64,000 bases of DNA from Paraspadella gotoi (GCA_051294375.1 CM119264.1:13040813-13104812); one strand, 5' to 3'. Positions 15,142 to 62,390 are shown, numbered from the stretch's first letter. Notes: generated from the sequence alone by a model not told the origin. Numbers and translations are program-made.

Positions 15142-15402
15142 GTTGATGAACGTTTGGTGGATTTTAGTCCACCATATCCCACTCTTTTCATCTAATTCTA
15201 AAAAATTATATATTTTTCATCGAAGAGTTTAACTCAGTCACTAGCAACAACAACAGAAAAAGATAGAAGCAAAACATTCAATGTATATTCATGAAAATAA
15301 GGCGATAATGTCCTAAATACACGTTGGATAGTCATTTCTTGCTTTCTTTCTTTCTCATTGTTTTCCCGCGATCTTTTTTCTGGAAAAGCGAAAAAAAAAA
15401 TC

Positions 15403-18400: not shown

Positions 18401-21400
18401 TCCAAAGTAAATTAGGAGATTCTGAAAGATCCGAGAGCTTTAAAGACCTATAAATAAAAATTGTAATCTACTAACACAAAAAATTAAAAACTAACTTTAG
18501 ATAAAGAGTGCTACTTTTTAGTTTTAATAAGCTTAAATCTGGATTTTTTATGAATGGCTATCAATTCTGCTCCAATTTCAATTTTAAAAGAATATTGATA
18601 AGAAAAAGGTTTATATGAAATCAATAGTTTTTAATTTGTTTAATCAGTTATCAGTTAAAAATCAGCATACCTGTAGTATTTCAAAAAAGGAGTGTTGATA
18701 ATTTTCTTCGGAACAATAACTACAGATCCAAGCAGCTGTTGCATATAAGTCTCATAAGTAAAGACGTATGATGCTTCCTTGATGACCTTTTCTACAGATG
18801 TTTGGTCAAACCAGTCATCGACTCCAATCCAGTAAAGACGACCAAAAGCATCAGCATTTTTGGCGGCAAACATTACCGACACCATGCGAGCTGGGTTCAA
18901 AAGCGAAACCACCACAAACGCACCTTCAAGCCAAGAAGAATAAATAGTTAAATAATGTAGCACTCTCTTTCATTTCTGATCAATGAACAGTAGTTTATAA
19001 CTCACGTTCATTTGACATCATCTTCACCAATACTCTTTCCATATTGGCCACAGTCTCGACGTCGGACGATTGAAGCTGATTATCCGAAGCGACGCAAATT
19101 CTCCGCGTTCCAGATTGAATTTTTTCCATCAATAGCATTGCCAGCCGAACAGAAGTGGCGCTGGAATCTCTAAGTAGGTGAATTGAATTCCATTTCTGAA
19201 CCTCCAATACGGACAAGAGAACTTCAATTTTAGCCGTTTTGGAGGGGATCGCGCGAATGAAATGAGGATATCTAAAAGTATGGAGAACTAATGGACTATT
19301 AAACAATTTGACCCGTTTCGATATATTTTTAACTTGCCGATGTCTAGTGTTGAACTCTGGGTCGTCGGTGATCGCGATCTGGGGAACTGGCACATTTAAA
19401 TCTTTGATGGCGGCGTGGATTCCTTTTGAAGACAATGGGTTAGAGTCCCCAACAATGGCTAGCGTAATCGTCTCTCGGGGTTTGGTGACGGGAGAGATGA
19501 AAGCCCCCTGGCCTAAAATGAATACGTAAAAATTCTATTAAAATTACAATAATTATTACTAATATTTTTAGTATCATTAAAATTATCAACATTAAGTCCA
19601 AAGTTTGCTTGCCATAGACTTACCAAGAATAACACTTCTCGTAATACTTTCTGCAAGTATCCCATTTCCAAAAGTATCAAACGCCTGTAAATAAAAATTC
19701 CAAACAAATCTCAAAAACATAACCTTGACTATTGGAAAAAAAAAGGTTTGATTAGATTTGTGGCTTGTGTTAATAGATATGTATATCTTCTGACCTTAAC
19801 TACTATTGGCACTCCAGGCAAAATAGTATTTTCTAAATTGATGTTTTGAACAACCCAGTCAAATGCGAGAAGATTTTCCATGTTTTCCTTTAAAGAAATT
19901 TCTTCAAAAATGTATTTACTTAATATAATACATATTATTACATAAATGTTAACAAACTAAAATTTACCTGAAGAAAGTTACCTCCTTCGTCTCTCAAATT
20001 TAACATGAGATGAATTTCAGCGACATTATCAATCTGATTGTCTATAGATTGCAAGGGAAGATCAAACTGAAACGTATTCTGTATCGTAATCAAGTCTGAA
20101 AAAAATTACACACATTATATGTATTGTTGTGTCTTTCTCTTAATCATGAATTTATTCATTTATTAATCAACATTATCTTGTTTTTCCGTCAGTAAAAAAA
20201 AACGCGTTGCTAAACAACGAAGATTTCACGAGTTACTTTTAAAAGCGTCAAGAAACTCACCATTCACGGAACCACAACCAATTTTGCTGCACTTGTCCGA
20301 ATTTATAGTCGAGGGAAAATAAAATCTGTAAAAAGTTGCTTTAGGGACAGGAGGATCCAACTGACGAGAATGATATCTTCCCACTTGAGCGATGGATTTG
20401 TCTCCCCTAAAGACTCCTTCGTTGATGTTGAGAATATTTAGCGGTACACGGGCCAAACCTTTTAAAAAATGTAATAAATTAAATACCGTGATTCAGGGGC
20501 GGCGAGATGGCGGACACCAACGCCTTCGGCGAGGTCCCCTGGAGGCCCCGGGAGGGCCCCTGAGAAGAAAGAAAAAAAAAGGAAAGGAAAGAAGAAAAAA
20601 AGAAGAAAAAAAGAAGAAAAAAAGAAGAAAAAAAAGAATGGAAGAAAAAGGGGGATAAAAAGGAATTGAGTCTTTATGAAAAAAGGTTCAGTCTGTGCAG
20701 AAAGTCTTACTGATCAAATTCATGTTAGATCTTACTTGGGCCCCTTTAGACTTTAGGGTTCAAGTTGGGCCCCTATTAAAGTAAAATCAATGCCTCTTTA
20801 TTGGTAATGTCCCAACTGTTTCAGGGATAGAGTCCATTTCACTCTTAATGCGACCCCTTATTCATTCAAATTACGGCCCCTCTAGAGCCCTGGAGCAATT
20901 TTCAAGGCAGAATTTCTGCCAGAAAGTCGGTAATCGAAAATGTAATTATACAATTCTAATACTTTAAAATTCAAAGTGCCATTTTTTGAAAAAAAACTGT
21001 TAATAATAGACAAATGTTTTCTAAAAAAATGATGGAATAAAACATTACAAAAATAATGATAATATTGTTGATTTGGAAGAGGGTTCAATACCTTGCAAAT
21101 TGTAGGCGAATTGAGATTGGTTGTCAGAAATCGAGATAAAAATGCTGCTCAAGATAGCGGAGGTAAAGCATTTGTAATTATTGATTGGACACTTATTACG
21201 TTCCGCGATTGACAAAGCATGAAGAATACTGTCGATTCCATCGTAAATGTTAGTGTGATCGTCATAGTATGAAAATTTATCGTAATCCACGTATTTCAGT
21301 GATGAAGATTTCAATTCTTCACTCTGCTTCTTTACTGTCATTTCTAGAAAAGGATTATCCACTGATGAGTTGGAAGCGTCCCTAGAATTAAGAACCATAA

Positions 21401-23172
21401 CTTATGGTATTACTTATGGCATAAGTAGCGCCAATTTATCTTTTTACGCCACTCAAAAAAGAATAAATTTAAATTAAATTTCACCGCTGTAAATTTGATT
21501 TTCCTTATTCCTCATGACCGCTGTTTGTTTTTAGTGAGTTACCTCAAATGGGTGTTAAAGTTGTTCGGTAATCTCCCGAAAGATTGAGCTACTATCAATG
21601 AACCTAAGACATCGTTTGCTATTGGCAAATTTTGATCGATGGCTTTTCTGAGGAAAGGTAACGTCTCCTGAAACAAAAGCCACGTGATGGAGCTGCGACG
21701 AATCTCCGCTTCTTGCTTCATGACTTTTTGGAAGACTTCTTCTCCTCCGAAAACAATCACGACGCCGACCTGAGACAAAATCGCATAATATACAATTTAC
21801 AATGGAATGGCTGAAAATTAAAAAAAAAACACAAAAAAAAACACAATAATTTGTAAATTCTAAAAATAACGGCAACTCCTACCTCGCTATCTACGAAAAA
21901 ACGCGTAACATATCTCTTAAGCATCTGAAGGATATCTTGATCGTTGAGGGTTTTGTAGATTTTGAGTCTGTACGCGACGTGGATTTGTTCTTCATTTGGA
22001 GATTCGGCAAGAATTCCGTAAAACCTTACAGCCAATGCTTCCCAATAGGGGGAGTCTTGAATTATAACTCCAATGTTTGACCATTGATAAGCCTACACAA
22101 CGGAAAAAGATTTTATGATGAACAATTTTTTTACGACGAAGATAAAACCAGTCTACATGTTGCATATGCCTAGTCACTATGAATTTTACTCCGGTTTTTT
22201 ATATAACAATTAGTCTACAAAACCTATAAAGTTTTCATAAGTAACGAGTGATTTGGACTTCATGTACAAAACTTTTGAAAACATTTGATTTCTTTGAGAC
22301 AAAAGCCGAAACTCCACCTTGTGGCGGTATATTCGCACAGTCTCACATCCACAATCCTTCTGCCAATCCCATTGGCTCAGAGTGGGAACCCATCCACAGT
22401 CCTAACGAGTTCCCTCTGCGTTAGCAAAGCGAGACCGTCCTCGGGTAACCGTGAGAGTGACAGGATGCGTCACTTAGGGTCGGAAGCCCCCGAAACCAAC
22501 AGTGAGATGCCCCAATGGGCATCACAGGCAACAAGGCTGTCGCCATCACCTAACCTTTAATAGCAAGTGAAAGGCCGATAAAAAATCGTTGGCATTGGGG
22601 ACGCTTTGAAAGAGATGCGGCTGCTCGGTCAGCGTGACGTCGTTGGATCGAAAGTTGACGTAAGGAACCGGGACGAAGGGCGCCAATCCGTCGGCAAGAA
22701 ACGACACTACCGCCATCGAGTCGTCCTCTCCCACGACGACGATGCGCTTGAGGCCGCTGATCGATCCGTCGGGTGGAATCTTAGCGGCGAGGTATACCTG
22801 ATCAGATTCTCCATATATATTCGTTTCATATGTTTTATACTGGTTGCACCAATTTCATAGATTGTAAAATATTAAGTTGTGGCGAATTCTAAATTGGCCT
22901 CTCGTATAGCTTGGTGAAACTCAACTCGTCCGATTGGCTTGGACAGCTATGACACGCATGTCTTTCCGTTGCTATAAATCCCTATTTTGTAACTTTTTAT
23001 TTTAGTTTTTTGTATTTTTTAGTTTTATAAACTTTCGCTCAGGAAATTATATTTTATTTTTCCTTTTTTTGGCTCATATTTTTGTTTAGTTTTTGTTTTC
23101 ATCTTTTTAGCCCATTTTTCGTTATTTCCTTTACCCTCATTTTTCTATTTTTTTTTTCTTTTGCCTTTAACT

Positions 23173-23211
<39 letters not shown>

Positions 23212-24105
23212 GTCTTTCTTTCTTTCTTTCTTACTTATATATTTTTTTAATTTCGATCTACTACGAAATATGAAATAAATTTTAAAAGCCGTACAACTAG
23301 TGGACAAGGTCAGGTCGTCGAAAAAGCGTTACTTTAAGAGAGTTGACGAGGGCGTGGAGCCTCGAAATGAACTGGTAAGGAGCTCCGCATGTGGCGAAAG
23401 CGACTGCTGCTACGGAGGGGCGCGGTGGTGGGAATTCTGAGAGGACGAAGTTGACGATCTCGGGCAAGACCTATGGGAAATATAGGAATTATAATATAAC
23501 AAAATACTAATAGATCATCGCCAAAACTTTTCGCAAAAATACGTATAAAAAAACGCAAAGCAACATTTTCATCAAAGAATTATTTTGATTTTTTTTTTTC
23601 ATCGACTCACAATCAGCTGAAATTATCTCCACCTTAAAACAACAACGACGACGACGGCCAATGCGAAAAGCGACATCTTTCTCACCAATTCTTGTGGCGA
23701 TCTGGCGACGGAGCCAGGCGCTCCGCATTGCACATCGTTCGTCGATGTCTCGAACAGAGGCAAAGCGACGAAGAGGATTGTCTCCGCCGCTTCGCAGTCG
23801 CCGAAAGTCGCCAGGGGGATTTCGCTCGGGATATTCTTAAAGATGGCGCGGCAGTTGGAAGCTTTTCAAGTTAAAATGTTGAGAGACTTAATTCTAAACT
23901 TTTCTTATGAACCAGTTTTATACGGTTATGAGATAACAGTAAAAAAAACATTTAGTTTCGCCAGGTCTCTCCTTCCCCACAAAAGCCAATTCGCCTCTAT
24001 TCTTCAAACAACTTTGAAAAAATTTAAATATTACTTACCACTTTCAGTTTCGTTCATGGCTAAACTTAGAACTAAAATTATTAGGAAATTCTTAATTCCA
24101 GCCAT
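15403..24105 (-). CDS. Class C (mGluR-like) GPCR paralogue A with two tandem Venus flytrap modules and 7TM
   Basis: Signal exon MAGIKNFLIILVLSLAM from 24105. VFT1 (~23860-20260) with VPYVNFRSNDVTLTEQPHLFQSVPNANDFLSAF and YQWSNIGVI. VFT2 (~20095-17245) with LLAFDWVVQNINLENTILPG, VPQIAITDDPEFNTRHR-YPHFIRAIPS, LYWIGVDDW, FSEFWMENFQC. 7TM motifs NPVHVQSSGILNYLL, SCLLVKSVRNARI, ETKYICAAS. Stop at 15403. Confidence 0.88.
18037..18235 (-). mobile_element. Solo LTR of the twister-LTR family
   Basis: Reverse-complement, internally shortened LTR copy with exact 4-bp TSD TTAT; lies in an intron of class C GPCR A. Confidence 0.9.
20494..20892. mobile_element. Possible degenerate hAT-type MITE
   Basis: Starts CAGGGGCGGC and ends GCCCTG, with repeated GGGCCC motifs inside an AT-rich intron. 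TIRs match over only 5 bp and no 8-bp TSD was found. Confidence 0.3.
22320..22547 (+). mobile_element. Solo LTR of the twister-LTR family
   Basis: LTR copy with exact 4-bp TSD ACCT, a few nt from a splice donor of class C GPCR A. Confidence 0.9.
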
Positions 24106-24605
24106 CGTTTTCTTTTAACATAGTTATTTTGCCAGGATAAAAATGTAAAAGTTTAAAAACGCAATAAAAAAAAACCAGTTTTAAAACAAATTCAATCTCA
24201 TCTGTCAGTACAAACCGGTTTTTTTTTTCAATCAAGCGGCTGATCAATCCCTAGGTTTTTCGTTTACATTGCACGGTAAGAACTAAATTGTACTTATGAG
24301 AGAATCGAGAGGCAATTTGCCAATAAAAACAAAGATTCTCGAATTACATCGTGTATATCTTGCTGAAAAATAAACTGCAGTAAAAAATAACAGTATGTGA
24401 AATTTTTATTTTACATAGTTAACACTAACAGAAATCAAGTTTGACAAAAAAAAACCACCCAAATATACAAAGAATAATAATTTATCACTATTTCAATTAC
24501 CAAAAACAAGCGCAGGTTATCATTGACAGAAGAACTGTCTTCACAACAAACCATGAATCTCTCCATTAAAAATTTATTTTTGATTTTCCTGATTTGTACC
24601 AAAAG

Positions 24606-27600
24606 TTATTGGAAATAACTCATTTTGCTGATCTTAAGGGTTGTCCCATCTATCTTGTGAATTCGTTCCTTTTGTTTAGACTGGTTATTGCTTGGTAATC
24701 TTGTCACATGTTCAACATGATTCATCACATAGTTTTCAATTGCGCCACGTTCCTAAAATCGAAACCAAATGTATGTTGTTTACCGATCGGGATATACGAC
24801 CAAACGGCTAAAAACTTTTAAACAAAATGATTGTCGTCATTAAAATATATATATGTTAATTAGTAATTAAAGTTTAAAAAACTAATCTTGGATATTTATT
24901 GATGATCCCAAACCTGAAAAACGACGTCTCTGGAAGACAGAGCGGATTTTTGACTTATAATACTGATTGCTTTTAACTCGAGTGTCTTGAATTTGTTTGT
25001 CCACTTGATAACAATGAGAAAAATAAATATACTGAGAGATTCTACAATCAGCAGTAAGCATATGGAGAGTAACTGTATTTCGCCTGAGTTTAAGGATTAA
25101 AAACGTCTTAATATAATATTAGATATTAGATATTAGATCGCGGCCACTTTTTTACCTTCGCTCAAAAAGTACCACACCGTCCAGAGAATCCAAGCCAAAC
25201 AACAGAATAACGACGCCAGCGAGATAAACCACGTCTCTTTATCAGCAAATTTAGTTCGTCGGTTGATCCAGGAATGGATAAGCGTTAACAGCAGTAAGAA
25301 CAGTGAGTATATGTTGATAAAGTAAAACGGAATACCGTCGAAGGAGCAAGACCAGCGCGGAGGGAGATAGGGAACAGTGGGGGAAATCAGGAGGAATGTG
25401 CTGGTGGAAGGAACGAGAAGAACCCATTCCAGACTGATGACAACTTGCACAGCAAAGAGGGATGTGACAACGAGGAGCTGAGAGGATAAGTATTAATTTA
25501 ACATAAATTTTTACGTCATTGGCGACGTACTACTTTACCTGAGATCCTGCATAAACCATCGGAATGTCGCGCTGACACTTTTGTTTGAAGCGATCAATTC
25601 GCGCATTGCGAATCGATTTCGCAAGCAAGCAAGAAAACAAAAGAGCGTGGAGAGGGGCAAAGACGATACGACGCACGGCGCACACACGTGGAGTCGATGC
25701 CACCTAAGATCAAATGTTCCCAACGACAAAATTTAAATTTCGGGCGTCGTTCTGTCAATTGACAATTTTCATCCCCCTCGTTCTTACCAGAAAGGTCAGG
25801 CAGAAAAGAAAGGTGAGGCAAATCGCAATGTTGAGGATGTAATTCAGAATCGGAGATGACTGGACGTGGACTTCGTTTTTGAAGTCAAGGACTAAGAGTA
25901 CCAGAGTGGCAAAGGAAGAGAGGAATCCTAGGATTACGATGCCGAAGACGATCATGCCCCAAATCCTCGACGCAAAGAATTCCAACTCTGGCTCGTTTGG
26001 GTCATAACCCGCGGTTTTTAGTTGGTCAGATGGTTTAAGTGTGGGCGATGAAATGCTCAGATTAAATGTGTTTAAGTCCTTCAGAAAATTATTAAAGGTT
26101 GTTAGAGAGTGCCAACTCTCATTTGCATTTTTGATTTAGAATTTTTCTCGGAATGTAAAATTATATATTATGGGTTATAAAATATCATTAATATTTTATC
26201 ATTTGATTGATTTTGTCTTAGATTATCAATGAAGCAAAAAAAAAATAAATACATTTTTTTTAGCATTGTGTCGAAAAATCTCATTTCTAAGGTACTATTA
26301 ATTAGTACTTACGGCTCCAATCTGCACGCAATCTCCGCAAACCGAGTCCTTTTCACATTTTGATACTAAATTGATCCTTTCCCGTTTTGGTCCATAAGCA
26401 GAGACGAGCAAGTCGTTCAGTTGCAACTCATTCGATTCGTGGGAACCAACATTTACAATCTGAATCAACGAGATGTATTTCATGAATACAACTTTATAAT
26501 ACGTAATTATCGTTAGCTTTAGCTACATACATACATTTTGACAACACTCTTACTTTAAAGGTATTTGCGAGAGTTCCCTTTTGAACGTTTCTTATAGCGA
26601 AGTATGCCGAAGCGTTTCGTTGGGTCAATATTAGAGGTCTAAGCTTAAGAGAGTCAGCGAGAGGGTCACCGACGATACTAGTTGTTTCGATCTTTCCCAT
26701 GAGATTTTGATAGAATGTATCGGAATTTTGAACGACCTGCGTTATCGCCGTCTGTGACGGAGTTGTTGACGCAATCAATTTCAATATTCAAGAATTATGA
26801 GCAAGACCTGATGGTTTTCTTACCGAGCATATCGTGGCTATTCCACATATGGATTGAAGGTGAGCTCGAAAAGCTTTGGTCAGTAAAAAAGCGACCTGCA
26901 TCATAGCTTCGACATCGTAGCTTTCATATGTGGTCTTAGGTGAATCCAGAGTCTCGTCCCCAGTGCAAGTACGGTCGTACTGAAAGCCTTTAAATCATTA
27001 TTAGTTATTAGAATTAACTTAAAAATATATATAGTACATAAATTTTTTTGACAGCCTTCATTTTTTAAAAACAATTTTTCACTGATCAACATTAAAGCGA
27101 CTTACTTCCACCGAGATTGCATTTAAAGTATGACATCCAAAAATGGTAAAAAAACTCGCGCCAAACCAAATTAGGAGAAGAACCAATCATTGTCAAATTT
27201 AACGACCTACAAGTAAAATAAAAAGAGAAATTAGATTATAATTAATCTTAAATACGTAATAGTTATAAATCTGTTCCATTCTTACTTAAAATAGTTCAAA
27301 AAAGGCACATTGATCGTTCTTTTAGGCACTATCACTATGGATCCCAACATCTGTGACGTAAAACTATGGAGACTAAATATGATTCCCGTTTGCTTTATGG
27401 TGTCGTTGATTGTGATTTCATTGAACCAGTCGTCAACGCCAATCCATTGCAGATGGCCAAACGCTTCAACTATGGAGGCGACGTACATCATCTCGACCAT
27501 TCGATCGGGTCCGACGAGTGAGATGACAACGTTGGCATCTATGAAGTCGGATGTGAACATCTTATTTTTGATCCAATTTCGCAGATGGTCATTGTGAAGC

Positions 27601-30600
27601 CAACTTACTTTTTACCAACATCATTCTTTTCAATATTCTCTTCATATTGTCGATGGTCTCGACATCCCTCGTTCTCAACTGGTTGTCAGTAGCGACACAG
27701 ATCTTCCTGTCGCCAGTAAGTCCTTTGATCTTCTGCTCCAGTAGCATGGCGAGACGAACGGATGTGGCGGAGGAGTCTCGAAGGACGTGGACGTAAGTCA
27801 AGTCGCGGTTCTGCAGCAGCGCGATAAGCACGTCGATCGTCATCGTTTTGCTCGGCACTGCGCGCAGGAAGGTCTGGTATCTGAACAGTCAAAGTTTGCT
27901 TGTAGCCATTATCTTAATTAGCTAATGGTTAAGTTTAGTTCAAGTATGTAAAGTAAAGATAGCCGAGCCACAGTAGTTAAGAGCTGACCTATCTCTTCTG
28001 TTCATTTCTGGGTCATCCGTGATGCCGACTTGCGGAAATGGAACCTGCATGTCAGTAATGGCAAATTGAATGCCTTTGGAGGAGTCCAACACAGAATCGC
28101 CAACGACGCTCAATGCGATTTCATGTTGAGGTTTGGTAATCGGGGAAATGAACGCTCCTTGGTCTTGAGGATGAAAAAAAAGGCCGAGTGGAATAAAATG
28201 AAAGAAATGCAAATCTAAATCTAACTCTACATTTAACTCTTACTCTTACTCCAGTCTTACCCACGAGAAGGCTTCGCATAGTGCTTTCTGCAATTTGTTC
28301 CGATCCGAACGTGTTTAAAGACTGCAAAATTTAAACTAAGTTGTGCCAAGTCTGAATAATCTTTAGTCGAAGAATTAGTACATGGGTAATTCTATAATTA
28401 AAATTAATTAGATTATATTGTTTCTTTAATAAGAATTATGAAATGATTTAATTAGAATAAATATTTCTTAACCTTAATAAGAATTCGAATGCCCGGCAAA
28501 ATCTTATTTTGTTCGTTGATTGTCCTCAAGGCCCAATCAAATGCCAGGAGATTTTCCATGTTCGTCCGATGAAAATTTCCATGTTCGTCTTTGAGTTTCA
28601 ACATCAAAAAGATCGTGACGACGTTGATGGTGTTGGTGTAGACTCTTGGAGGATGATGAAGCGGGAGGTCAAAATGACGTACGTATTTGACGGCCATGAG
28701 ATCTGAGGAGAGAGGAATAATGAGGGAAGAATGAGAATGAGAATCGTGATTAGTTATTAAAGGCAAAACAATTTTTAAGCAACGATGTTATCTCAGAATG
28801 TCTACGAATAAAATATTTACTTACCCTCGACCCATCCGCAGCCATTGGGTCCACACAATTTCGAATCGATCTTTTCAACCTCAAATTGTAAATTATTGTA
28901 GAAGACAGCAGAAGGAATCTGCGGATCGAGTGTCCGAGATACGTAGCGACCGACAGATTCGATTACTGGAAAATTGCTTCCATATTTTTTGATATTGAGA
29001 ATGTCCAGACCAACGCGAGCTAAGCCTATTTTTGGAAATGTTAGTTATCAACCCTCTGAGGGTCTTTAAGTCAGTTGATCATGGCAGCTAACTATATCAT
29101 GAACCGAGGCACCGTTCAGAGGAAGGTCAAACCTTGCAAGTTATACGTGAAGGTTGTTCCTTGGTAGGCGAGAGACTCGAATTGCGTGCTCAGAATACCG
29201 GATGAGAGGCAGGAGAAATCGTGGAGGGCACAAGAACGCTTCTCCGCATACTCTAGCCCTTGGAGAATGCTGTAAAAGGCGTTGTAGAAGTTGATATGAT
29301 CATCAAAGTGACGAAATGCGTCGTAGTCAACAAAAGTTATTTGTCTCCCAAGCACCGCACTCTGCTTTCGCAAGCATTCCGCCAAAAATGGGTCCGTCGC
29401 GTAGTGTGATGAAATTCTGAAAGCGAAAAGACCGAGATGATAGTTGGAAAATAAATACGTAAATGGACGGTGTCCAACGAAATAAATAAAAATAAACTCA
29501 CTTTAAATGCTCAGTAAAGTTTGATGGAAGTTTGGCAAAGGTCTGTGATAGAATAAACGATCCGAGAAGGTTTCTTACATTCGTCAATTGTTTTTCAATG
29601 AGACTTCTAATGTAAGGGAGAGTTTCTTGGAACAGCATCCAAATAGGACTGAATTTGTTGACGGTCAATCTGTCGTGAATAATCTGGAAAGACTTCCGGC
29701 TTCCAAAAAAAATAACAACGCGGGCCTTTTGCGAAAAAAAAAATTAAATCAATACTACAAAAAAAATGATTTATTTCGACATTCATGATATAAAAAAAAA
29801 AAGAACCTGCTCCGCGTAATAAAGTTTCTGAATATAATTTTCTAGAAGAAAGTCGATGTCATCGTCATTGAAAGAAGTGAAGACCGTCAGCGTATATGCG
29901 ATTTTAATCTGTTGATCTCTGGGCGTCTGCCCCAGCATTCCATAGAATCGTTCGGCCAAAGATTTCCAGTATACCGAGTCCTCAACCAAGACTCCTATGT
30001 TGGTCCATCCATAAGCCTATGTATTAGAAATGTAGGCAAAAATCGGGTATTATATAGAAGGGTAGTAGGTTGTGGCGGTGTATTCGCACCGCCTCACATC
30101 CCATTGGTTCATAGGGGAAACGCACCATCCACTGTGGTTTCCACAGTCCTAACGACTTCACTCTGCGTTGGCAAAGCGAGACCGTCCTAGGGTAACCGCG
30201 CCAGGGACAAGAGGCGTCACGGAAGCCCCCATCTCAATGGGCATCATAAGAAACCCGGCTGTTGCTGTAAGGTAATGTTTACTTAAGCTAGGACTAAGCT
30301 CTGACGAACAAAGCCCGAGGCTTTTTTTAAATATATTCTTATACCGGCCAAGGTAGAATGATGGCAATATTGTTAATATTAAGTTTAAAAAAAATCCGAC
30401 TATAAATATAGAAAATATTAACCAAAATCTTCGGAAAATTCACCCCTTCTTTGGAAGATTTTTCGCCATAGAAAGATTTTTCCCGAATCTGACTCCCGGT
30501 TGAAAACTCTTAGAATTCCTATCGTTAGCTCCTCTTTTACTTTTACTTTAAATAAAAATTTCACCAAAATGGACTAATTAACTTTACCATGATCGTATCT

Positions 30601-33834: not shown

Positions 33835-39019
<5,185 letters not shown>

Positions 39020-47660: not shown

Positions 47661-48305
47661 GTCATATAATTAGGAACTCTTTTACCAAAAAAAGGATTTT
47701 GAAAACAAAAAGTGAAAAGATAAAACTAAAACTAAAAGTAAAAGGCTAAGTAGGTAGTATTGCTTTACAATACCGTAACCCGTAAAAAACTCGTCCCTCA
47801 TCCCTGACCCACCAGCATGACGAGGCCTCCCGCGCCGATAAGGATGTAAGTGGCGGCGGGATAAGTGGAAGTGGAGAGCAGCGACGCGTAGTGGTGTTTG
47901 TCTAAAAGAGTCCAGAGGCCGACGCCCAGGACGACGCCTCCAGAGAGCTGATTGAGTGGGTCAGTTGAATGAAGCAAATGAATGATTGAGTGGGTCAGTT
48001 GAATGAAGCAAATGAATGATTGAGTGGGTCAGTTGAATGAAGCAAATGAATGATTGAGATGGTCAGTTGAATGAAGCAAATGAATGAAATGAAAGTGAAT
48101 AATCGATAAAATAAACGAAACGAATCACATCGGTGAAATAGTGGCGACTTACCATGACCCGTATTTTTATTAAATAATAAATATAAAGATATAAATATCG
48201 ACTTACCCAAAAGATGGCGTTGAATATGAAGAGTATGTACTTGAGAAAGGCGACGCCGCAGCATCCGCCGGCGTCCTTCTTGCTTCGATCCGATTCCGAA
48301 TACAT
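45932..48305 (-). CDS. Tetraspanin, CD151/TSPAN11-like
   Basis: [41 protein letters not shown], large loop FRCCG...PDSCC...[12 protein letters not shown]4 [11 protein letters not shown], last exon [17 protein letters not shown] (45932-45934). Confidence 0.93.
47950..48085. repeat. 34-bp tandem repeat, 4 copies (GATTGAGTGGGTCAGTTGAATGAAGCAAATGAAT)
   Basis: Directly visible; abuts the 3' splice site of a tetraspanin intron. Confidence 0.9.
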
Positions 48306-51300
48306 TTTTGAGATTTTATATTTATAGTTTATATCGTTCTTTTTTTTTTTTTAAATAAACTTTCTCATACGAATAAGAATCCTTATCCTCGGTCTCGACA
48401 CATTCTCAAGGCTCAAAGTTTTTATTACGTGAAAACAATTTATTCGAGATTCGCCCGAAGATTTTGGCAACCGAGCAATAACTTTTTTTTCTCAATATAC
48501 GAGAGGGTTTATATTTGTTTTACGACGGTGTTTTTAGATTTTTTTGTTTTATTTTTTATTTTTTAAATAATTAATGACGTAAATAGTCGAGGGATGAATT
48601 TTACATCGAGATTCTGTTTTTATCAGTTCAACTTTTGTTTTGTTTTCGTTTTCTTCCTCCGGAGAAAGTTGAGCCAAGCATTCATGGCAATCACGACGAA
48701 GACGAAGAGTAACGACGAAGATGACGACGAAGAATAAAGACGAACCCGAGGAATATAACGTCGTTATCGTCCTTTTATGCACGACGAGAAACCGTAAAAG
48801 TAAAAGGCTTTGTCGTCGTCGTCGTCGTCGTCTCGTATTTCTTCTTTTCCCCTTTTCTTATTCGGGGAATGATTCGATTATTTGAGGTTGTTAAACCAAA
48901 GAGCATCTGAAAAGAAATATTTAAAAAAAGAGGATAACAATTTAAAATGAACTTTTCTAGTCTTACTATAGAGAAATATAGAAAGGTAATTCTTAATAAT
49001 ATATTTTTAAAACTAAGGCTCTCTTGTGAGTTTGTTTTTGTAGGGGCAGTGAACCTAGAAGTTTGACAGGATGAGCCAAAGGTGAATACCCAGCTGCGAG
49101 GCGGTGAATCTTTTTACATGACCGAATTTTTCCGAGAAGAAAAAAGTGACACTTAATGAGACGAAATGGTTTCGAGTGGTGATAGTTAAGCGATGAGCGT
49201 TATTCTTCCCCGAGACAAAAAAGATCAATCAGGAATTAGGAAAAAAATGGCAAAAAAAAAAGGGGCGTTCGTACGTAGCAGCGGGAAATTTAAAAAAAGA
49301 AAAATTAGATCTTTCTTGGAGGTAAAAAAAAAATTGTGGCTCGAACATGAATATCGCGGAAAAAGTTGAAAAGTTGAGGAAAGAACCGAAGGCAGAATTG
49401 AGAAGGTTAACAATGGATGCTGCGGTTGAACGAGAATGTAAAGAGGAGTAAGTTAGGAAAGTAAGGTCTGGTTGGGCCAGAGATCACGATGTAAACAAAC
49501 CGCAAAAAAAGGGTGAAAAAAATTCGTAGGGGAGACAGATTATGATGTCGAAGTTTATGTAGATATGAAAAAGAAGCAAGATGTAATCTTTGAAATAATG
49601 ATAAGGTAAACGTCACCATAGAAATTTATTCAGAAATAATAAACAAAAAAAATTTTAAAATGTTTTAATTTCTTAGGATGTAAAAATTCTCATTTTACTA
49701 TGATAAAGTAAATATTTCATTATTTATAGTGGATTCATACTAAGAAAACAATTGAGTTTAATAATTAAAAAAATATATCTAAAAAAAAAAATTTAACTAA
49801 TGATTCCTTAGTATTCAGGAAAATTCTAACTTTTTTAGCTTTTCTTTAAAATAAGCTTTTTTTATTACTCAAAATCAAAACTAAAAATGGTTAAAATATA
49901 CATTGACATACATCACTATGTCGCAATTTTTTTTTACAAAGCATTTTAATAAAATTCGTGAAGATGTGAATTTTTTTCACACTCACCCACTGAGTCTGAG
50001 AGATTAGAAAAGAGGAGCGAAAAAAAACCAAATTCCCGTTTAAACACACGTGGGCGGAAAAGAGAAAGATTAAATAAAGGAAGAAATTAAATAGAAACAA
50101 GCAATTATAGAAAAAGGTGGGTTTTAATGAAGATAATTATTAATAAAAGATTCCTTGAGGAATAAACAGAAGAACAAATTAAAGAAAAAAAGGAAGCAGT
50201 GAATATTTACGTCTCAAATTTTAATATTTTAGTATTTTCAATGAGGAGAATAAATAAGTCTTTTGACGGTGTGTTCAAAATCTATCTGCGCTTGTAAGTG
50301 AAAGACTAAACTTTTATGTATATACAAAAATACCAGACAAATCGCATAAATATTTATGATGATGTATTTTAAACTTTTTTTTTAGCATTTGAATTCGTAA
50401 TTGATTTAATTCAACCGAGAAATTTATTTTTCCGTTTTTATTACTTTTGGTCACGAAATCTCGAAAAGATATTTAGTCGAGTTGAATTTCACGAGAAGCT
50501 ATTCGATGCTCCTTAGAATTCACGAAAAACACCCAACGGAAGTTGAGAGAGAGAGAGACAGAGAAAGAGAGAGAGAGAGAGAGAGTGAGAGAGAGAAGAA
50601 ACTAGTTTTTCTTAAATGTTTTAGAAAAAAATTAAACTTTGATCTTCAAGACATGAGCTATTAAGATAAGGTAATATTATTTATTTATACAACTCAACTT
50701 TTTAAATTTGATAAATCGTTATTAAAGACCCCATCGCCCCCCCCCGCCCCCCCTCCCAAAAAAAAGGCAAAAATAATTAAGAAGAAGTAAAAGTTGAGAG
50801 TTCTTCGTCTTCTGAGAAATAAGGAGGAAAAAGAAAACAAAAAATGGAAAACATTGAAAATAAAAATTAATTCGTGGTCGACAAAATTGGTAAAATAAAA
50901 AAGCATTCCTTAAAACAATTACTTTCAAAAAAATGATTAGTGGATAAAATTCGGTCGATTACAAAAAGTCTTTTTCCCAAATTTCTAGTTTTCGAGTTTA
51001 AAAACGTTAAATGTCATTTAACAATTACTAAAAAGGAGTGACGGTTTGAGTGGTTTCTTTTTTAATTTTTTTTTCTCTCTCGAACTCGCTCTTTCGATCT
51101 CTGCCCCTCACTTCTTCGTTCTCTCATCACAATCCTCCCCTCCCTCTCTCCCTCCTTCCCTCTCTCTCACTCTCTCTCTCAAAGTACGCTCGCAAAGAGT
51201 TTACGGCAAAATAAACAAAGTCCGTAATTTTGATTGATTTTCAATCAAAACGGATCCCATTATGAGTCTCCTGTCAAGGACGATTTTCCTACCGATCATT

Positions 51301-55893: not shown

Positions 55894-56178
55894 GGGAGAT
55901 GGTATCTAAACGACGTATGAAACCCACCTCCGCAGCTGCCCGCCTTCATGTACTGCTGGGTCTCACTCACCTTACTCAAGCCGGCGCATTCGCCATCATC
56001 ACCAAAGTCTTCGCCACTTACCTCGTCGCGCCTTTCTTCGGCGGCTGCGAACCGTCTGGCACTGCTGCTGACGCTCGTCGCCGTCACTGCGCAAATCGTC
56101 ATCACGCTTGCAATTGCGTGTCCGTTCGGGGGCGCTGAGAATGCAGGTTAGGGATAAAATATCAATACAATAACAATC

Positions 56179-56225
<47 letters not shown>

Positions 56226-59200
56226 CACTCCTTCCAGATAGTCTTCACTTTGACTAAATCCCTGGCCCTCCTCACCATCATCTCGCTGGCGGCGTCATGT
56301 TGAGTCGAGGCTACGACCAGAATCTCCGTCGAGGTTTCGAAGGATCAGATCAACTCTCAGCCAACTCCTTCGCTCTGGCGCTTTATCAGGTAGGCTTTGT
56401 CAGGCGGCATAAGGGATCTATTTAATAGGGCTTCATCTGGTAGGCTTTATCATATTGGAATGGATTCGATCGGGCTTATCAGGTTAGGTTTTTTAAATTA
56501 GCCTCATCAGGTCGGTATTTATCTGGAAGAGATTTATCAACAACGGTTTTTTTTTTTTCCGTGAACGACTTCATAAAGCCTATCGGCCATTATCAAGGAA
56601 GAACTCGAAGGAAAAAATGAGGAAGCTAATTAATAAACGCAGACGTAGAAGTGTTATGAAATTAAATTACAAAACCACGCGCCCCGTTTTTTTTTGTCCT
56701 CGATAACAGATAAAAGATAATAAAATTTCCCTCCTTTCAAACCCTAAAATGAAGTGCCTGTGGGCCTACGACGGATGGAATTACTTGAACTACGTGACGG
56801 AAGAGATAGTGAACCCTCGCGCAACATCCTCGCCGCGATGCTCGTTTCCGTCCCCGTCGTCACCTCGTCTACGTCCTCACCAACGTCGCTTACTTCACGG
56901 TCCTCTCACCCTACGAAGTCCTTCACATCGGTGAGACTATAGATAAACGAAACCACGTGGTGGCGTCTCAGACTTAATTTATTGATTTGAATTCGATATA
57001 TCGATTCTAAGATTAGTTTTGAGCTCATCCGAGGTTTATTTCTTTTTAATGTCATTATTTTTGGACAGTAGTGCCTATGAAGGCAGTATATTCGCACGTG
57101 CTTTAATATTTGATTAATATTCAGAATTTTTGATAATATATTTTCTGTGGCATCGTTTGCTTTTGGTTTTGATCTCAGGCGCCGTCGGCATCGGATTCGC
57201 TGACCGCGCCATGCCGACGGTGGCGCTCGTAGTTCCTCTCCTCATCGCCGCCTCTTGCTTTGGCGCCGCCAACACGGCCTGCTTCACCTCGGGCAGGATT
57301 TATTTCGCCGCCGGCAGAGAGGGTGAGAAGATGACGAACTCTGGATATTCTGAAGGCTTTGTACAAAGGAATAACACTTTACTATTTTCGTATAACTTTC
57401 CCAGGTAGTCAGATATTAATAAAGCCCGAAGTTAAATCCAATCCTCCATTCCAGGCCACGCCATCCGCACCCTCTCTATGGTGACGCGACGTTTCCACAC
57501 TCCGATGCCCGCCCTCATCCTCCAGTGTCTCATCTCCGTGGCGATGAACGCCTTGGGAGGCGTCGACCAACTCATCCGTTTCTTCTCCTTCGTCGCTTGG
57601 ATGTTTTACGGCCTCACGACTCTCGGTGATTTTGTGATTTTGGTGAAGACGTCTGCGTCTCGCCATCTGTTCCGTAACGAACGGGGGACGCCCGTGCACT
57701 CATGATCGTGATAAGCGAGCTCACCTATTTGGGATCGACCGAGAACATGCAGTGACGAGCCGTATGACGTAAATTGTTCAATTACCCCTGACCTTGCATC
57801 TCCTCCCCACTTCCACTCTTTCTCCATTCCGCAGGGGTCATCGTCCTCCGCGTGACGCGTCCAGACGCCCCTCGCCCCTTCCGCGTGCCCCTCGCCTTTC
57901 CCGTCGTCTTCGTTCTCGTCTGCGCGTATCTCGTGATGGCGCCGATCGTCGAGGATCCCAGGATAGAATTTTTGTGGGCCTTCCTCTTCGTCGTGGCAGG
58001 TGGGTCAAGTGACAGTCGGACTGACTGATTAAAATACTGAATCTGGCTAAGTGGATGACAACTGAAACCGCAATTTCATGTAAATCGAAATTTCAAGCAC
58101 AATGTATAAAATTGTACATATAAATTTTGTTCACGAGTTCAAAAACTCGGCGGAAAAATCGAAAGTCATCGTCTGTCCGGAAATTCGCGTCCTCTCGTCT
58201 TCTTCGCCGGAAGGAAATCGGCAAAAGGTGATGCGGAAGTCGGAATCATCCGCCGGAGCTGGATGAGCTGATGGTGCAATTTCTACCGGGAACGCTGGGG
58301 TTGTAGACTCAGTTGGCATCGTAAAAGATTCTTGTAAATCAGATTTGGTCGGGATTGCACCGCAATCGTCTTCTCGCGATTCATCCGGGACTCTCAAGTA
58401 AATGTAAAAGAGTTCAAAGGTTTCCCCATTGTTGTTATTGTTGTAGAGTCCATGAGGGACATTGGAAGGGATGAAGATTCCTTCGCAAGACTCGGCGGAA
58501 ATCTCAATAGATTCCCCGTCGATGAAGAGCCTGCCGGAAATGGTCGGAATAATTTCATATTGTTTATTTAACCTTTTTTAATTAATATTTTTTCTCGCCG
58601 ATAAAATTTCGCCTCCTCAGCTTTGTACTTGGTTTCAGTTTTCTTTTTTTTTTTCGCATGGTTACCTCTCCCTTTTTCTACTCCGCTTTCTTTTCCACCC
58701 TTCACGAGCGGAGAGCTACGTTTCTGGCAAAAGGAAAAAACGGATAAATCTTTACCTGCAAGAACCTTTTCTGGGAAAGTAGATTTCGGGTTCCCGGTGC
58801 CGATGATAAGTGGCTTTTTTGCCGGGCGCCAACCGCATGATTCCGGCCCTCGGTTCCCGAAAAAACCGTTTCCATTCTACGACGTGGGATTCGTCTAAAC
58901 CCGGGGTTTTGAATCGCGTCCACGGAGTGGAATCCGACGCCAGCGAAACGAGCCAACGTTTATTCATGAGAATTCATGTCGACGTTGAGAATAAAGTTTT
59001 TTTCTTAAAAAAAGAGAATGAAAAAATGCGCCTTGTTTCGATTTCTCTTCTGGGTCGTTTCGGGTAGCTCCGAATTAATTTTGATGACAGCTCGACGCTC
59101 ATTTCAATCAAAAAATTTCCGAAGTTGAATAACTCGTTTTAATTATTAAAAAGACTGCTACTGCTCAGAAACGAATGAACTTTGACAGAACCGAAGAGTG

Positions 59201-59530
59201 AAAATGAGATAAAAGCGAGGACAATATAGAATTTAACTTGGGCGCTGGTAATATATACGTAATCGCCGAACATCCGAAGACAAAAATATGAATTATATCT
59301 CAACTCAATTATCCCTTCATGATTTGACAGGCCTCTTCCTCTACATTCCATTCGGGATCTTCAAAGTGCACAACCGTTTCCACTTCCTGACGCAACCGTT
59401 GCTCTTTTTCGAGTATTTAATGGATTTGGGAGAATCCCTGGTGGCGGCGGACGACAGCCCGACGAAAATAAATGACAAACGCGAATCGAAAACAAAGAAG
59501 AAACTAAAGACTTTGTTTAAAAAATACTGA
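53718..59530 (+). CDS. SLC7 L-type amino acid transporter light chain (LAT/b0,+AT-like) with several apparent 1-nt frameshifts
   Basis: KRKVSLWEGVALMA-GGIVG-SGIFVSPTGV, CYAELSGVVPKSGGEYAYL, LWAYDGWNYLNYVTEEIVNP, SCFGAANTACFTSGRIYFAAGREG, TPMPAL, PRPFRVPL. Last exon GLFLYIPF...KY-stop at 59331-59530. Confidence 0.9.
58131..58967 (-). CDS. Cupin-fold metalloprotein resembling DddK/DddW-type DMSP lyases; 2 exons, ~203 aa, nested antisense in the last SLC7 intron
   Basis: Exons 58967-58756 and 58530-58131 joined by a GT-AG intron, 612 nt in frame. Cupin motif 1 GIMRLAPGKKATYHRHREPEIYFPRKG and motif 2 GIFIPSNVPHG. The cupin call is firm; the DMSP-lyase resemblance is inference. Confidence 0.8.
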
Positions 59531-60258
59531 CGCTTAAACATGAAGTGAAGTTTATTATTAATGAAGTTACAAATTAGTTTTTTAGCGTTTTAACCTTGAG
59601 AGACTCATTTTGGCTTTTTAAAAGAATTTAAACAAATTACAATAGGGTATTACAAACGTATCAATGGAAAGAAAGTCCTAATGCTAATTACTGTGTTGTA
59701 ATTATCAAATTGCCAAAGGTCAACATATCGAATAAATCCGCACAATTTGATATTTTTATTTAGTTTATTTCATTAAAACTTGCAGTTAATACGGGTTTAA
59801 CAAAAAAGTACATTTAGAATCAAGACAATCTTTTATAAATACAGAACAAAAAAAATTGATCATATTGATATGTAGCTCAAAACTACATACAACAAAATGT
59901 ATATATTTTTCTATCGCAATAAGGCAATATTGCAACAAATCAATGTAGAAATTATCTTTGCAAAAAGAAAAACCGTAACAAACAGATGATTAGATGAAAG
60001 ATTAATAATGAGGATTAGGTTTCTAGTAATAATTTTCAAAACAAATATAAATCGATTAAAGTGAACCACTCATCAAAATTTGAAATAGAAATTCGTTAAA
60101 GCAAAACAGAGCACAAAGTTTGATTCACAATGGCAATTTTCTTTTAGTCTAAGAAATAAATATATCTGAAATGGACTGACATAAAAAAGACTATCGCTTT
60201 TGTAAAAAAACAAAAGGCTGTTCTACACTTCAACTAGTCGAAATATTTTGACCTTACC

Positions 60259-62390
60259 TCACTGAATCGAGCTGTACCCCTTCTTTCCCCTCTGCTCCTC
60301 CTCCGAGATCAACGGAGCGCATTCCTCCCGTCCGGCGTTCCGGTACAGAATGAAATTTTGCACGACGAAGATCCCGGTGAAAATCCACGAGGCGAATCCG
60401 ACGCCGAACTTGGCGGGATTTCCGACCATCGACCAGATGTCGTCGCGATTCGCCGCCATCAGCGTCAGTTGTAGCACGAGGGAAGTGGAGCCGGAAAAGT
60501 CGAGGCAAATGTTGACGGACGAATATCCGGCCGTTGATTTTCGGCGCCAGTTCAGGTAAGCTTGTGGAGCGTACTTGACGACGCTTATGCCTGAGGGTCG
60601 GGAAGGAATGTGGAAGAGAATAAAAATAGGAAGTAATAGAGCAAGTAAGCGAAAAGCGTACATTATCCACAAAGACCCGACCTATTTTGATGTAGCTGTA
60701 GACGTGGATAAAGGAAAGCCAATCCATCGTTCCCGTGAAGGCAATCGGCAGACAGATTAACGGAGCCAGGAAGAAAACTACGAGAGCGAACCAGGACATC
60801 TTGGAAAGGCGTTGCCCTCCGTCAGGGAGGCAGGCGCACTAGTAATGGGGTTTGAGTTAATTATGAAAGGTTTATGAAACGAGAAAAAAAAATTAAGGAA
60901 CAAATGTATTCCTCAAGTTCACCTGGAGCGCCAGCAGGGCGATGAGCGCCGTGTTGTGAATCACCGAAGCCAAATCAGGAATTTCCACAGGAATCGGGGA
61001 GTGTGGGTGTTCGCGGAAGTAGATGGCTTGGATATAGGGGCTCCAGTACATGCTGCACATCACGACATCGTAGGATGTGTAGGCGAGAATGTTGAGAAGT
61101 CCGTAGTCGATGCTGAAGCCTGGGAGGAAGTGGTAAAGTAGAAATGTAAACTGAGAACATTAAAAAACCTTTGACAACAATCCACAAACCGTCATTTGTT
61201 TTAAAACAATAAGTCGTTTAATTTAAAGATGATTCAGTTAATCAATTAATCGATCAAAATGTTTTCACTAATGAAAAAAGCAATCGAAATTTGTTGATTT
61301 ATTGATATCCCGATAAATCATAAACTTAATCATGCTTTTCAGTCAACTTATCAATCTGAAGATTAAAAATTCATTCTCTCTCAACCTGACACGCTCCAAG
61401 ATTTGAAGTTGAGGAAGACTTGTGGATAGTAGGAGACGCCCCAAAAGACCATGTAGGTCCAGCCGAGGATGTTGTTAAAGATCTTGAGGTTGGCCGAGTG
61501 GACGACGTCGACGACGACGAAGGTGTGGTTGAAGGAGTTGATGGAGTTTAGCTCGGAGGAAGTGGAGCGAAGAACCAGAGTCACTTGACCTGAATTGAGA
61601 AAAGGGGGAGAAAAAAAGTACAAAGTTGAGAATTCCACTTAGGATAATACAAAGTCTTTTCAAGCGCTTTATGTACATACTGAATCTCAACTAAAAAGAA
61701 ATAGAAATAAACTCACCGACTTTCCGCGCTGTGATGGACACCGCTTTCACTTGAGCCGTTGTTCGGTTGTAGTTCGCTTCAAATCTTAAGCTGTGAATGT
61801 CGGCTAAGACACCGCCTGACGAATTCTTAACAGTGTCTTCGTCGTAAAAACTAACCAAAAAAATAATAAATTATTAAGGAAAAACCTACTATTTAATGAT
61901 AAAGTTATCAAAAAGAAAAGTAAATTGTACAATATCATATAGATATAAACAAAAGAAAACAATTACCCGATTTCGACCTCGGCGTCGTATTCTAGTTTCT
62001 CCAGCAAAACGACGTCGACGAAAATTCGTCTCCCGACTTGAACCGACACTTCCTGTTAGTTGGTAGAATTGGAGTTGTGCTTATTAAATTTAAAGAGATA
62101 GAAAGAAAGAAAGAAAAAGAAAAAAGTCCGCGCGAGCGAATTTTTCATATAAATTAAACTTTTAACTTCTATCTTATTTAGTGACGCCTACACTAGTCGT
62201 CACATCCCAGCCTCACGTGAAACCACCCTTCTGACATCACAAGCCTCACCTTTTCGTCGAAGAAAATCTTTGGTTCTTTTCTCGCCAAATAATTGGCGTA
62301 GAAGTCGACGTCGTCTTCAGCGACGACGACGACGACGACGACGAACGTCATAACGAAAAAAGTAAACAAACTTTGGCGCAGGAGCTTCAT
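60259..62390 (-). CDS. CTNS: Cystinosin (lysosomal PQ-loop cystine transporter) homologue
   Basis: Signal peptide and luminal domain; LGWTYMVFWGVSYYPQVFLNFK; SYIKIG-ISVVKYAPQAYLNWRRKSTAGYS; GNPAKFGVG; C-terminal GYSSI resembling the GYDQL sorting motif. Confidence 0.9.

Follow-up and report, generated by a model that had tools for sequence, protein, structure and literature searches.

A cupin gene within an SLC7 intron

The stretch of Paraspadella gotoi DNA analyzed here (GCA_051294375.1 CM119264.1:13040813-13104812; 64,000 nucleotides (nt), hereafter the window) carries on its minus strand a two-exon gene for a small cupin, and the whole of this gene lies, in antisense orientation, inside the last intron of an SLC7 transporter gene. 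An earlier note, made from the sequence alone, had placed a two-exon gene at this position and likened its product to the bacterial enzymes DddK and DddW, cupins that cleave dimethylsulfoniopropionate (DMSP) to dimethyl sulfide (DMS) and acrylate. The gene is as described there: all of the quoted peptides are present, and from the ATG at 58967 an intact 612-nt coding sequence (CDS) for 203 amino acids (aa) runs through both exons with zero internal stops. The nesting was also read correctly, as the spliced SLC7 joint is seen and the intron is the last one before the SLC7 stop codon at 59530; such an antisense placement is ordinary. The features of the gene, in window coordinates, are:

58000..59330, plus strand: last intron of the SLC7 (b(0,+)AT/xCT-like) transporter gene, host of the cupin; spliced joint 57996/59328, skip 1331, GT..AG
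58047..59076, minus strand: cupin transcript from its 5' end to the poly(A) site, a single 840-nt contig of run X9
58968..59076, minus strand: 5' untranslated region, 109 nt, with one upstream ATG at 58977
58960..58977, minus strand: five-codon upstream open reading frame (ORF), in another frame and overlapping the main cupin ATG
58756..58967, minus strand: coding exon 1, 212 nt, residues 1-71, which alone matches Pfam Cupin_2 at E 0.051
58872..58874, minus strand: Trp32, equivalent to the pocket residue Trp26 of DddK, aligned in three of three MAFFT modes
58779..58805, minus strand: cupin motif 1, with His55, His57 and Glu61 as predicted metal ligands and Tyr63 as predicted catalytic base (DddK Tyr64)
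58531..58755, minus strand: spliceosomal GT-AG intron (GTAAAG...CCGGCAG), 225 nt, phase 2, separating the two cupin motifs
58131..58530, minus strand: coding exon 2, 400 nt, residues 71-203, with motif 2 followed by a Pro/Thr/Ser-rich tail
58452..58454, minus strand: His97, predicted fourth metal ligand (DddK His96)
58404..58406, minus strand: Tyr113, at the position of DddK Trp110, the sixth Cupin-DLL residue (Trp/Tyr)
58047..58130, minus strand: 3' untranslated region, 84 nt, with neither AATAAA nor ATTAAA

The upstream ORF may dampen translation of the cupin. The protein has no N-terminal hydrophobic segment, so that a cytosolic location is likely, and tblastn found no second cupin copy within the window. 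The C-terminal Pro/Thr/Ser-rich tail (about 80 aa) has no counterpart in P0005, one of the two close relatives introduced below. Low-depth contigs in the X6/X7 and X9 data match 58184-58212 of this tail and then diverge, which is probably chance, with a paralog possible.

The region is present in nine runs of one organism from three studies, and eight of the 11 listed runs were examined; X6 and X7 have identical depths over the cupin gene and were treated as one data set. No run is recorded as RNA. The RNA status of X6/X7 and X9 was taken from their splice joints: for the SLC7, cystinosin-like and cupin genes they contain solely exon-exon joints, which marks them as RNA-derived. The cupin joint (58529/58755, skip 225, CT..AC on the plus strand) is found in both RNA-type data sets and in none of the DNA-type runs X1, X5 and X8, and the intron predicted at 58755-58531 thereby has RNA support. 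Transcription is equally plain, as the 840-nt contig of X9 spans 58047-58529 and 58755-59076, with 21 non-templated T preceding 58047 and 24 loose letters beyond 59076, which resemble a cDNA template-switch adaptor. This contig is a complete polyadenylated cupin mRNA.

In run X8 the introns are covered continuously and the alleles differ from the window. One X8 contig runs unbroken from SLC7 exons into cupin exon 2 (57400-58605), another from cupin exon 1 into the last SLC7 exon (58587-59711), and the gap counts of both are wholly accounted for by non-coding indels. Five indels fall within the 225-nt cupin intron and none within the 612-nt CDS, the frame being intact in both X8 and X9; the naive chance of this split is 0.0014, a figure that makes the contrast look too strong since the intron is AT- and run-rich. 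Coding single-nucleotide polymorphisms of the cupin in X6 (three synonymous, three non-synonymous, none at motif residues) are too few for a selection test. A contaminant, an assembly artefact or a pseudogene could be suspected from the apparent small indels in the upstream SLC7 exons of the assembly and from the upstream ATG that overlaps the cupin start. However, contigs with different alleles link the exons of the two genes, the mRNA has lost its intron and carries a poly(A) tail, and the CDS is intact and free of indels; on these grounds the contamination and pseudogene readings were rejected, and we hold this explanation as a whole to be extremely improbable. The cupin is a spliced, polyadenylated and genomically integrated animal gene. 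Runs from two other organisms, B and C (X10 and X11), contain SLC7 or cystinosin pieces at about 80-88% identity and nothing on the cupin at 80% or above, which is no proof of absence.

Antisense RNA is also seen further along the SLC7 gene. In X9 a 68-nt skip on the minus strand (57725-57792, joint 57722/57791, depth 48.9, GT..AG), inside the SLC7 intron 57626-57834, is a spliced antisense RNA over SLC7 exons (57454-57996), and a contig of X6 continues from 58534 to 57971, beyond the cupin poly(A) site. Either a cupin isoform with an extended 3' end or a separate RNA could account for the antisense signal.

Active site and relatives of the window cupin

The Cupin-DLL superfamily is defined by six active-site residues (Lei, Alcolombri, Tawfik, 10.1101/161257). 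For DddK the published accounts describe His56, His58, Glu62 and His96 as binding Mn and Tyr64 as the base, with Tyr122 hydrogen-bonding the substrate carboxylate and a cation-pi cage formed by Tyr21, Trp26, Phe108, Trp110 and Phe117; substitution of Tyr122 loses >90% of the lyase activity on dimethylsulfoxonium propionate (DMSOP) (PMC10686828). Tyr122 is further described as gating the site, and W26G as lowering DMSP activity 50-fold (PMC12582016). The earlier note had listed five DddK residues in the window protein, and the match extends beyond them. The H-x-H-x3-E-x-Y motif (H55, H57, E61 and Y63) and H97 are present, and mapping onto DddK in three of three MAFFT modes also retains W32 and Y113, at the Trp26 and Trp110 positions, so that all six Cupin-DLL residues and the pocket Trp are aligned. 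A role of Arg34 in reshaping the pocket was considered and discarded, since this position is variable (F/Y/S/K/T) among DddK-like proteins.

How much this signature says depends on its rarity. The comparison set comprised 77 unique full-length DddK proteins from 117 metagenome loci, eight Acuticoccus-group proteins and a cupin pool from 151 actinobacterial genomes and plasmids. The five residues listed in the earlier note, taken alone (HHEYH), occur in two of the 30 other top-scoring cupins, and they stand without the pocket Trp in P0022 and in L166. The combination with Trp26 and Trp/Tyr110 is rarer. It is found in the window protein, P0005, 10/10 DddK and 8/8 Acuticoccus-group rows, in one of the 30 other best-scoring cupins (L130, itself in the DddK-like clade), and outside the known groups only in L130, L160 (also DddK-like) and the bicupin L163. 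The extended signature is therefore informative within this cupin pool, which is small and mostly actinobacterial.

The closest relatives came from a HMMER search with exon 1 against 1.84 billion representatives (E up to 0.001). Of its five matches, P0005 (160 aa, Logan) and P0006 (121 aa, ENA), both singletons, were accepted as genuine, and the other three (P0004, P0007 and P0008) were dropped as repeat-driven. P0005 matches both exons (24/48 identities over one and 25/48 over the other; 43-45% over about 130 columns) and therefore provides independent support for the splice. P0006 aligns with exon 1 only and turns unrelated just after motif 1, probably because of an unspliced intron or a frameshift. 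Both are about 45-50% identical to the window protein, and the bacterial proteins found are at about 21-30%. Further members did not emerge: a search with P0005 returned only itself among 299 candidates, the family profile added none among 1,490, and exon 1 alone gave none among 18 candidates in a word-based search for longer proteins and none in the PDB; the one match of exon 2 alone was judged chance. Scans for close-relative motifs were likewise empty in JGI metagenomes (0/283 pattern matches), GTDB (0/97) and IMG/VR (0/15), as was a longer pattern in IMG/VR (0), all requiring near-exact motifs and leaving absence unproven. P0005 had seven matches among 401 Actinomycetota genomes, at 28-39% identity, none in the window family.

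DddK is the closest characterized protein. Among 177,635 PDB sequences, DddK takes the first four places for P0005 (E 9e-11 to 2e-9), well ahead of the following cupin at 4.4e-5; P0003, the in-frame read-through of the window cupin that keeps 75 intron codons, also has DddK first, at an E of only 0.23, and the Acuticoccus-group protein P0009 matches DddK at 2.8e-17. A profile search of the PDB with the DddK-rich alignment A3 was circular and went unused. The cupin superfamily is marked by a beta-barrel fold and by the two motifs G-x5-H-x-H-x3,4-E-x6-G and G-x5-P-x-G-x2-H-x3-N. Cupin_2 (PF07883) matches P0005 at E 2.3e-14 and P0003 at E 2.3e-5 (24.5 bits, below the 27.2 cut-off with the intron codons left in), and NCBIfam matched none of three proteins. 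A hidden Markov model (HMM) of the three-sequence family gives 34.9-48.3 bits for DddK (n=77, median 41.8), 37.0-44.7 for the Acuticoccus group (n=8) and at most 35.6 for other cupins; among five later matches the best was L160 (47.5 bits), which is DddK-like. Conversely, a DddK HMM gives the spliced window core 23.3 bits, against 7.3 for the highest-scoring of 500 shuffles. An AlphaFold2 (AF2) model of P0005 from a 36-row alignment is a cupin barrel (mean confidence, pLDDT, 78; C-terminal part 55-69), a single-sequence model (pLDDT 31) having been rejected. In fold searches DddK ranks first or tied first (3.4e-9 in Foldseek), and VIA superposes residues 10-149 on DddK 2-126 (Z 14.1, root-mean-square deviation 2.5, 114 aligned); since the superposition reaches DddK residue 126, a C-terminal segment may fill the gate position without a Tyr.

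Two trees were built, both without DddW, DddQ, DddL, DddY and DddU. Tree 1 has 51 rows and 124 columns (LG+G4), with long branches flagged; tree 2 has 38 rows (LG+C20), after removal of 13 long-branch or redundant outgroups and five DddKs and addition of five new matches. The window protein, P0005 and P0006 form a clade (98/95 in tree 1, 98/98 in tree 2), hereafter the window family. DddK, the Acuticoccus group and L130 form a DddK-like clade (97/92 in tree 1; the DddK-like clade has 87/86 in tree 2), and DddK itself is monophyletic (100/99) to the exclusion of the window protein in both trees. By the approximately unbiased test, placing the window family with the whole DddK-like clade (p 0.36), with DddK alone (0.25) or with the Acuticoccus group (0.22) is in no case rejected and in no case shown. 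On these alignments the window cupin is not a DddK orthologue. The earlier likeness to DddK and DddW thus stands in that DddK is the closest characterized protein, and is weakened in that the window protein lies outside the DddK-like clade and has no Tyr122, Phe117 or Tyr21.

The same searches brought up uncharacterized DddK-like cupins outside SAR11, encoded by actinobacterial genomes and by a plasmid of Acuticoccus, which are candidate DMSP lyases as judged from their residues. Each has the full metal set with Trp26, Tyr110, Phe117 and Tyr122:

L160:1501-1893, DddK-like cupin
L130:1516-1911, DddK-like cupin
L003:2965-3369, DddK-like cupin

Proposed function and origin

We propose that the window cupin represents a new Cupin-DLL subfamily and acts as a metal-dependent beta-elimination lyase, for which DMSP or a close analog would be a plausible and perhaps minor substrate; the proposal extrapolates from DddK, and we give it an even chance. 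In the proposed mechanism, His55, His57, Glu61 and His97 would coordinate a single transition metal to which the substrate carboxylate binds, Tyr63 would abstract the C-alpha proton, and Trp32 and Tyr113 would hold the positively charged leaving group, each step being modeled on DddK. The cytosolic enzyme would act on DMSP or a related onium-propionate, probably with modest efficiency, to give acrylate and a neutral leaving group, which would be DMS in the case of DMSP. Tyr115, which is common to P0005, might speculatively substitute its hydroxyl for that of Tyr122. DddK is reported to accept DMSP and DMSOP and to carry out aza-Michael additions (PMC10686828, PMC12582016), so the scaffold is tolerant of related substrates. 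Working like DddK is the best single reading, and membership of DddK is not supported.

Several findings weigh against this proposal, foremost among them the state of the pocket. In all three alignment modes S27 stands at the Tyr21 position and L111 at Phe108, and Phe117 and Tyr122 have no counterpart; Tyr21, Phe117 and Tyr122 are invariant in 77/77 DddKs, and 19/19 DddK-like rows of tree 1 retain Phe117 and Tyr122. The Tyr21 position is Ser/Thr and Phe117 is not alignable; the onium cage keeps two of five aromatics in the window protein (W32, Y113) and three of five in P0005. There is no Tyr beyond residue 115 of the window protein or beyond 125 of P0005, and Tyr122 is therefore absent under any alignment. 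Since this carboxylate gate is without counterpart, rate and preferred substrate are likely unlike those of DddK. Neither tree puts the window family in the DddK-like clade, and its sister is unsupported in each (43/68; 40/60). Several generic cupins outscore the window protein on the DddK HMM (up to 46 bits), for which reason that score indicates a cupin and nothing narrower. PF16867 matches neither P0003 (E up to 1) nor P0005 (E up to 0.1), a weak negative because true DddK-like proteins score near its cut-off (24-33 bits), which three of four Acuticoccus-group proteins pass. In the fold comparison 3kgz ties with DddK at Z 14.1 and the TM-scores of other cupins are equally high, the model moreover being biased by its DddK-rich alignment; the fold match fails to discriminate DddK from other cupins. 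The flanks of five bacterial look-alikes (1.5-3 kb on each side) contain no recognized DMSP-catabolic gene and instead hold glycosyltransferase/galE genes, a BrkB-family membrane protein, a helicase with a luciferase-like monooxygenase, a GH2 protein and an ATC hydrolase. Finally, according to Lei et al. only a small minority of Cupin-DLL proteins are DMSP lyases, and the native function of nearly all members is unknown (10.1101/161257).

A rival reading is a lyase-like cupin with another reaction, which could be isomerization or oxygenation of a small carboxylate or lysis of its C-N bond, and with nil or negligible DMSP cleavage. The statements of Lei et al. are in keeping with this rival. 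The missing Tyr122, Phe117 and Tyr21, the separate clade and the occurrence of the five-residue motif without the pocket Trp all fit it, as do the Pfam result (Cupin_2 only) and the Atlas neighbors of P0005, which are mostly Cupin_2 clusters, with one of the 10 listed named as a DMSP-lyase family and all at 0.95-0.96. The retained Trp26 and aromatic-110 pocket, rare outside DddK-like proteins in the cupin pool, and the match of P0005 to DddK, five orders of magnitude better than to any other cupin in the PDB, speak the other way, and we regard this alternative as a serious contender that falls behind the proposed lyase. A narrower form of our proposal makes the cupin a dedicated DMSP lyase acting on dietary or symbiont DMSP, for acrylate/DMS defense or osmolyte turnover; the complete catalytic set, DddK as closest characterized relative and the full-length mRNA favor it, but the gate residue is lost and DddK and DddW are themselves called mid-range, possibly bifunctional lyases (10.1101/161257), which leaves it rather unlikely. 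The boldest form, an undescribed intron-bearing subfamily of bacterial-type cupin DMSP lyases, domesticated in animals, cleaving without the Tyr122 gate and independent of the cnidarian Alma genes, hence the first animal cupin DMSP lyase, strikes us as similarly doubtful.

The earlier note had further taken the gene for a horizontally acquired, domesticated enzyme. Its integration among host genes, its splicing and its expression agree with this, whereas no supported bacterial sister was found, and neither tree nests the window family inside a bacterial clade with support. Horizontal transfer is plausible from rarity among the searched proteins and from the bacterial nearest characterized relatives, and from these only; a donor is not nameable from about 125 columns. 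A recent transfer is unlikely, given the intron and given relatives at no more than about 45-50% identity. The ultimate origin would thus likely be prokaryotic and old, and a prokaryotic origin at some depth is in our judgment fairly probable. An old, patchily retained eukaryotic cupin family, vertically inherited with no transfer into the animal lineage, would explain why P0005 and P0006 are much nearer than any bacterial protein found, why P0006 breaks off after motif 1 as an unspliced intron might, and why supported nesting among bacteria is lacking. It also agrees with the GC content at third codon positions, 0.53 for the cupin, inside the range of the other window exons (0.47-0.91) and uninformative. 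However, the family is rare in all of the searches above and both relatives are singletons, when named matches would be expected of a metazoan family that is widespread, with the reservation that the sensitivity of these searches is limited, and we consider vertical inheritance unlikely, though a good deal less so than an artefact.

If the window cupin is active on DMSP, an animal genome would itself encode a metal-dependent route to DMS and acrylate, one overlooked by surveys for bacterial ddd or algal Alma genes since the protein escapes PF16867, and DMSP-lyase-type genes would have a second origin among animals, independent of the first. If inactive, the cupin is still a small, expressed and easily assayed Cupin-DLL member, whose natural loss of the Tyr122 gate probes what makes a cupin a DMSP lyase.

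Neighboring genes and known systems

The host gene encodes a transporter whose exon 57454-57624 has b(0,+)AT and xCT as its best PDB matches (E 2.6e-9). Its exons on either side of the cupin are:

57835..57999, plus strand: SLC7 penultimate exon
59331..59530, plus strand: SLC7 last coding exon, with the stop at 59530

Further upstream, the SLC7 exons at 55900-57000 (plus) are not in one frame and public contigs are gapped against the window there, probably owing to small indel errors in the assembly and not to a broken gene. Convergent with SLC7 lies a cystinosin-like (PQ-loop) gene (59334-62250, minus), whose RNA contig extends as far as 59334, into the last SLC7 coding exon; that a cystinosin-like exporter sits beside a cystine-transporter-like SLC7 and a possible organosulfur lyase may be chance. 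At about 15400-29500 (minus), divergent class C G-protein-coupled receptor genes (ANF_receptor and 7tm_3 exons) stand in tandem; there are at least two of them and probably three. These receptor exons and the PQ-loop gene make the window fit an animal genome. An exon at 48066-48350 (minus), with no Pfam match at E 0.01, presumably resembles a tetraspanin N-terminus. Two ORFs on the minus strand, 35633-36175 (181 codons) and 1035-1790 (252 codons), are coding-like and have no Pfam match.

In the sources consulted, cupin DMSP lyases are described as bacterial (PMC11497337, PMC4437653), and DddP is reported in some fungi (PMC4437653). Contrary to what the earlier note says of characterized eukaryotic DMSP lyases, eukaryotic lyase genes are therefore not all of the Alma type. 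Alma-type DMSP-lyase-like genes are reported in corals and other cnidarians (PMC7783167, PMC10901607, PMC10349084). An animal DMSP-lyase-like gene as such is consequently not new; the animal genes described in these sources are of the Alma type only, and our searches returned no publication describing a cupin-type DMSP lyase from an animal, most subscription journals lying outside the coverage. The cnidarian genes resemble the present one as animal-encoded candidate DMSP lyases with a proposed horizontal origin and incompletely validated activity. They differ in having an Asp/Glu racemase fold with catalytic cysteines and no metal, and are unrelated to the window cupin.

With the Cupin-DLL superfamily, which includes DddW, DddQ, DddL and DddY, the window protein shares all six defining residues; the superfamily is known from bacterial and metagenomic sequences gathered via PF16867, which the window protein does not match, and the 361-sequence set of Lei et al. 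could contain eukaryotic members. According to the same authors, DddW falls in one clade with DddK, and roughly 10^3 M-1 s-1 is quoted as kcat/KM for DddK and DddW (10.1101/161257). The Acuticoccus/Jiella group (P0009, P0015-P0021) and the DddK-like L130 and L160, all uncharacterized, are like the window protein in their Tyr at 110, their N-terminal Trp pair and their similar family-HMM scores, but these proteins keep the C-terminal Phe117 and Tyr122 and group with DddK, P0009 being about 21-23% identical to the window protein. The nearest system is DddK of SAR11 (PDB 5TFZ, 5TG0, 6A53-6A55). Both are single small cupins, about 29-30% identical, and the window protein has the metal set, the equivalents of Tyr64 and Trp26 and an aromatic residue at 110. 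It differs from DddK in having no Tyr122 or Phe117, in Ser for Tyr21 and Leu for Phe108 (Phe in P0005), in P-[RK]-K-G after the catalytic Tyr, in a two-residue insertion before motif 2 and in its tail of about 80 aa, and it belongs to a separate clade and is encoded by an intron-containing animal gene.

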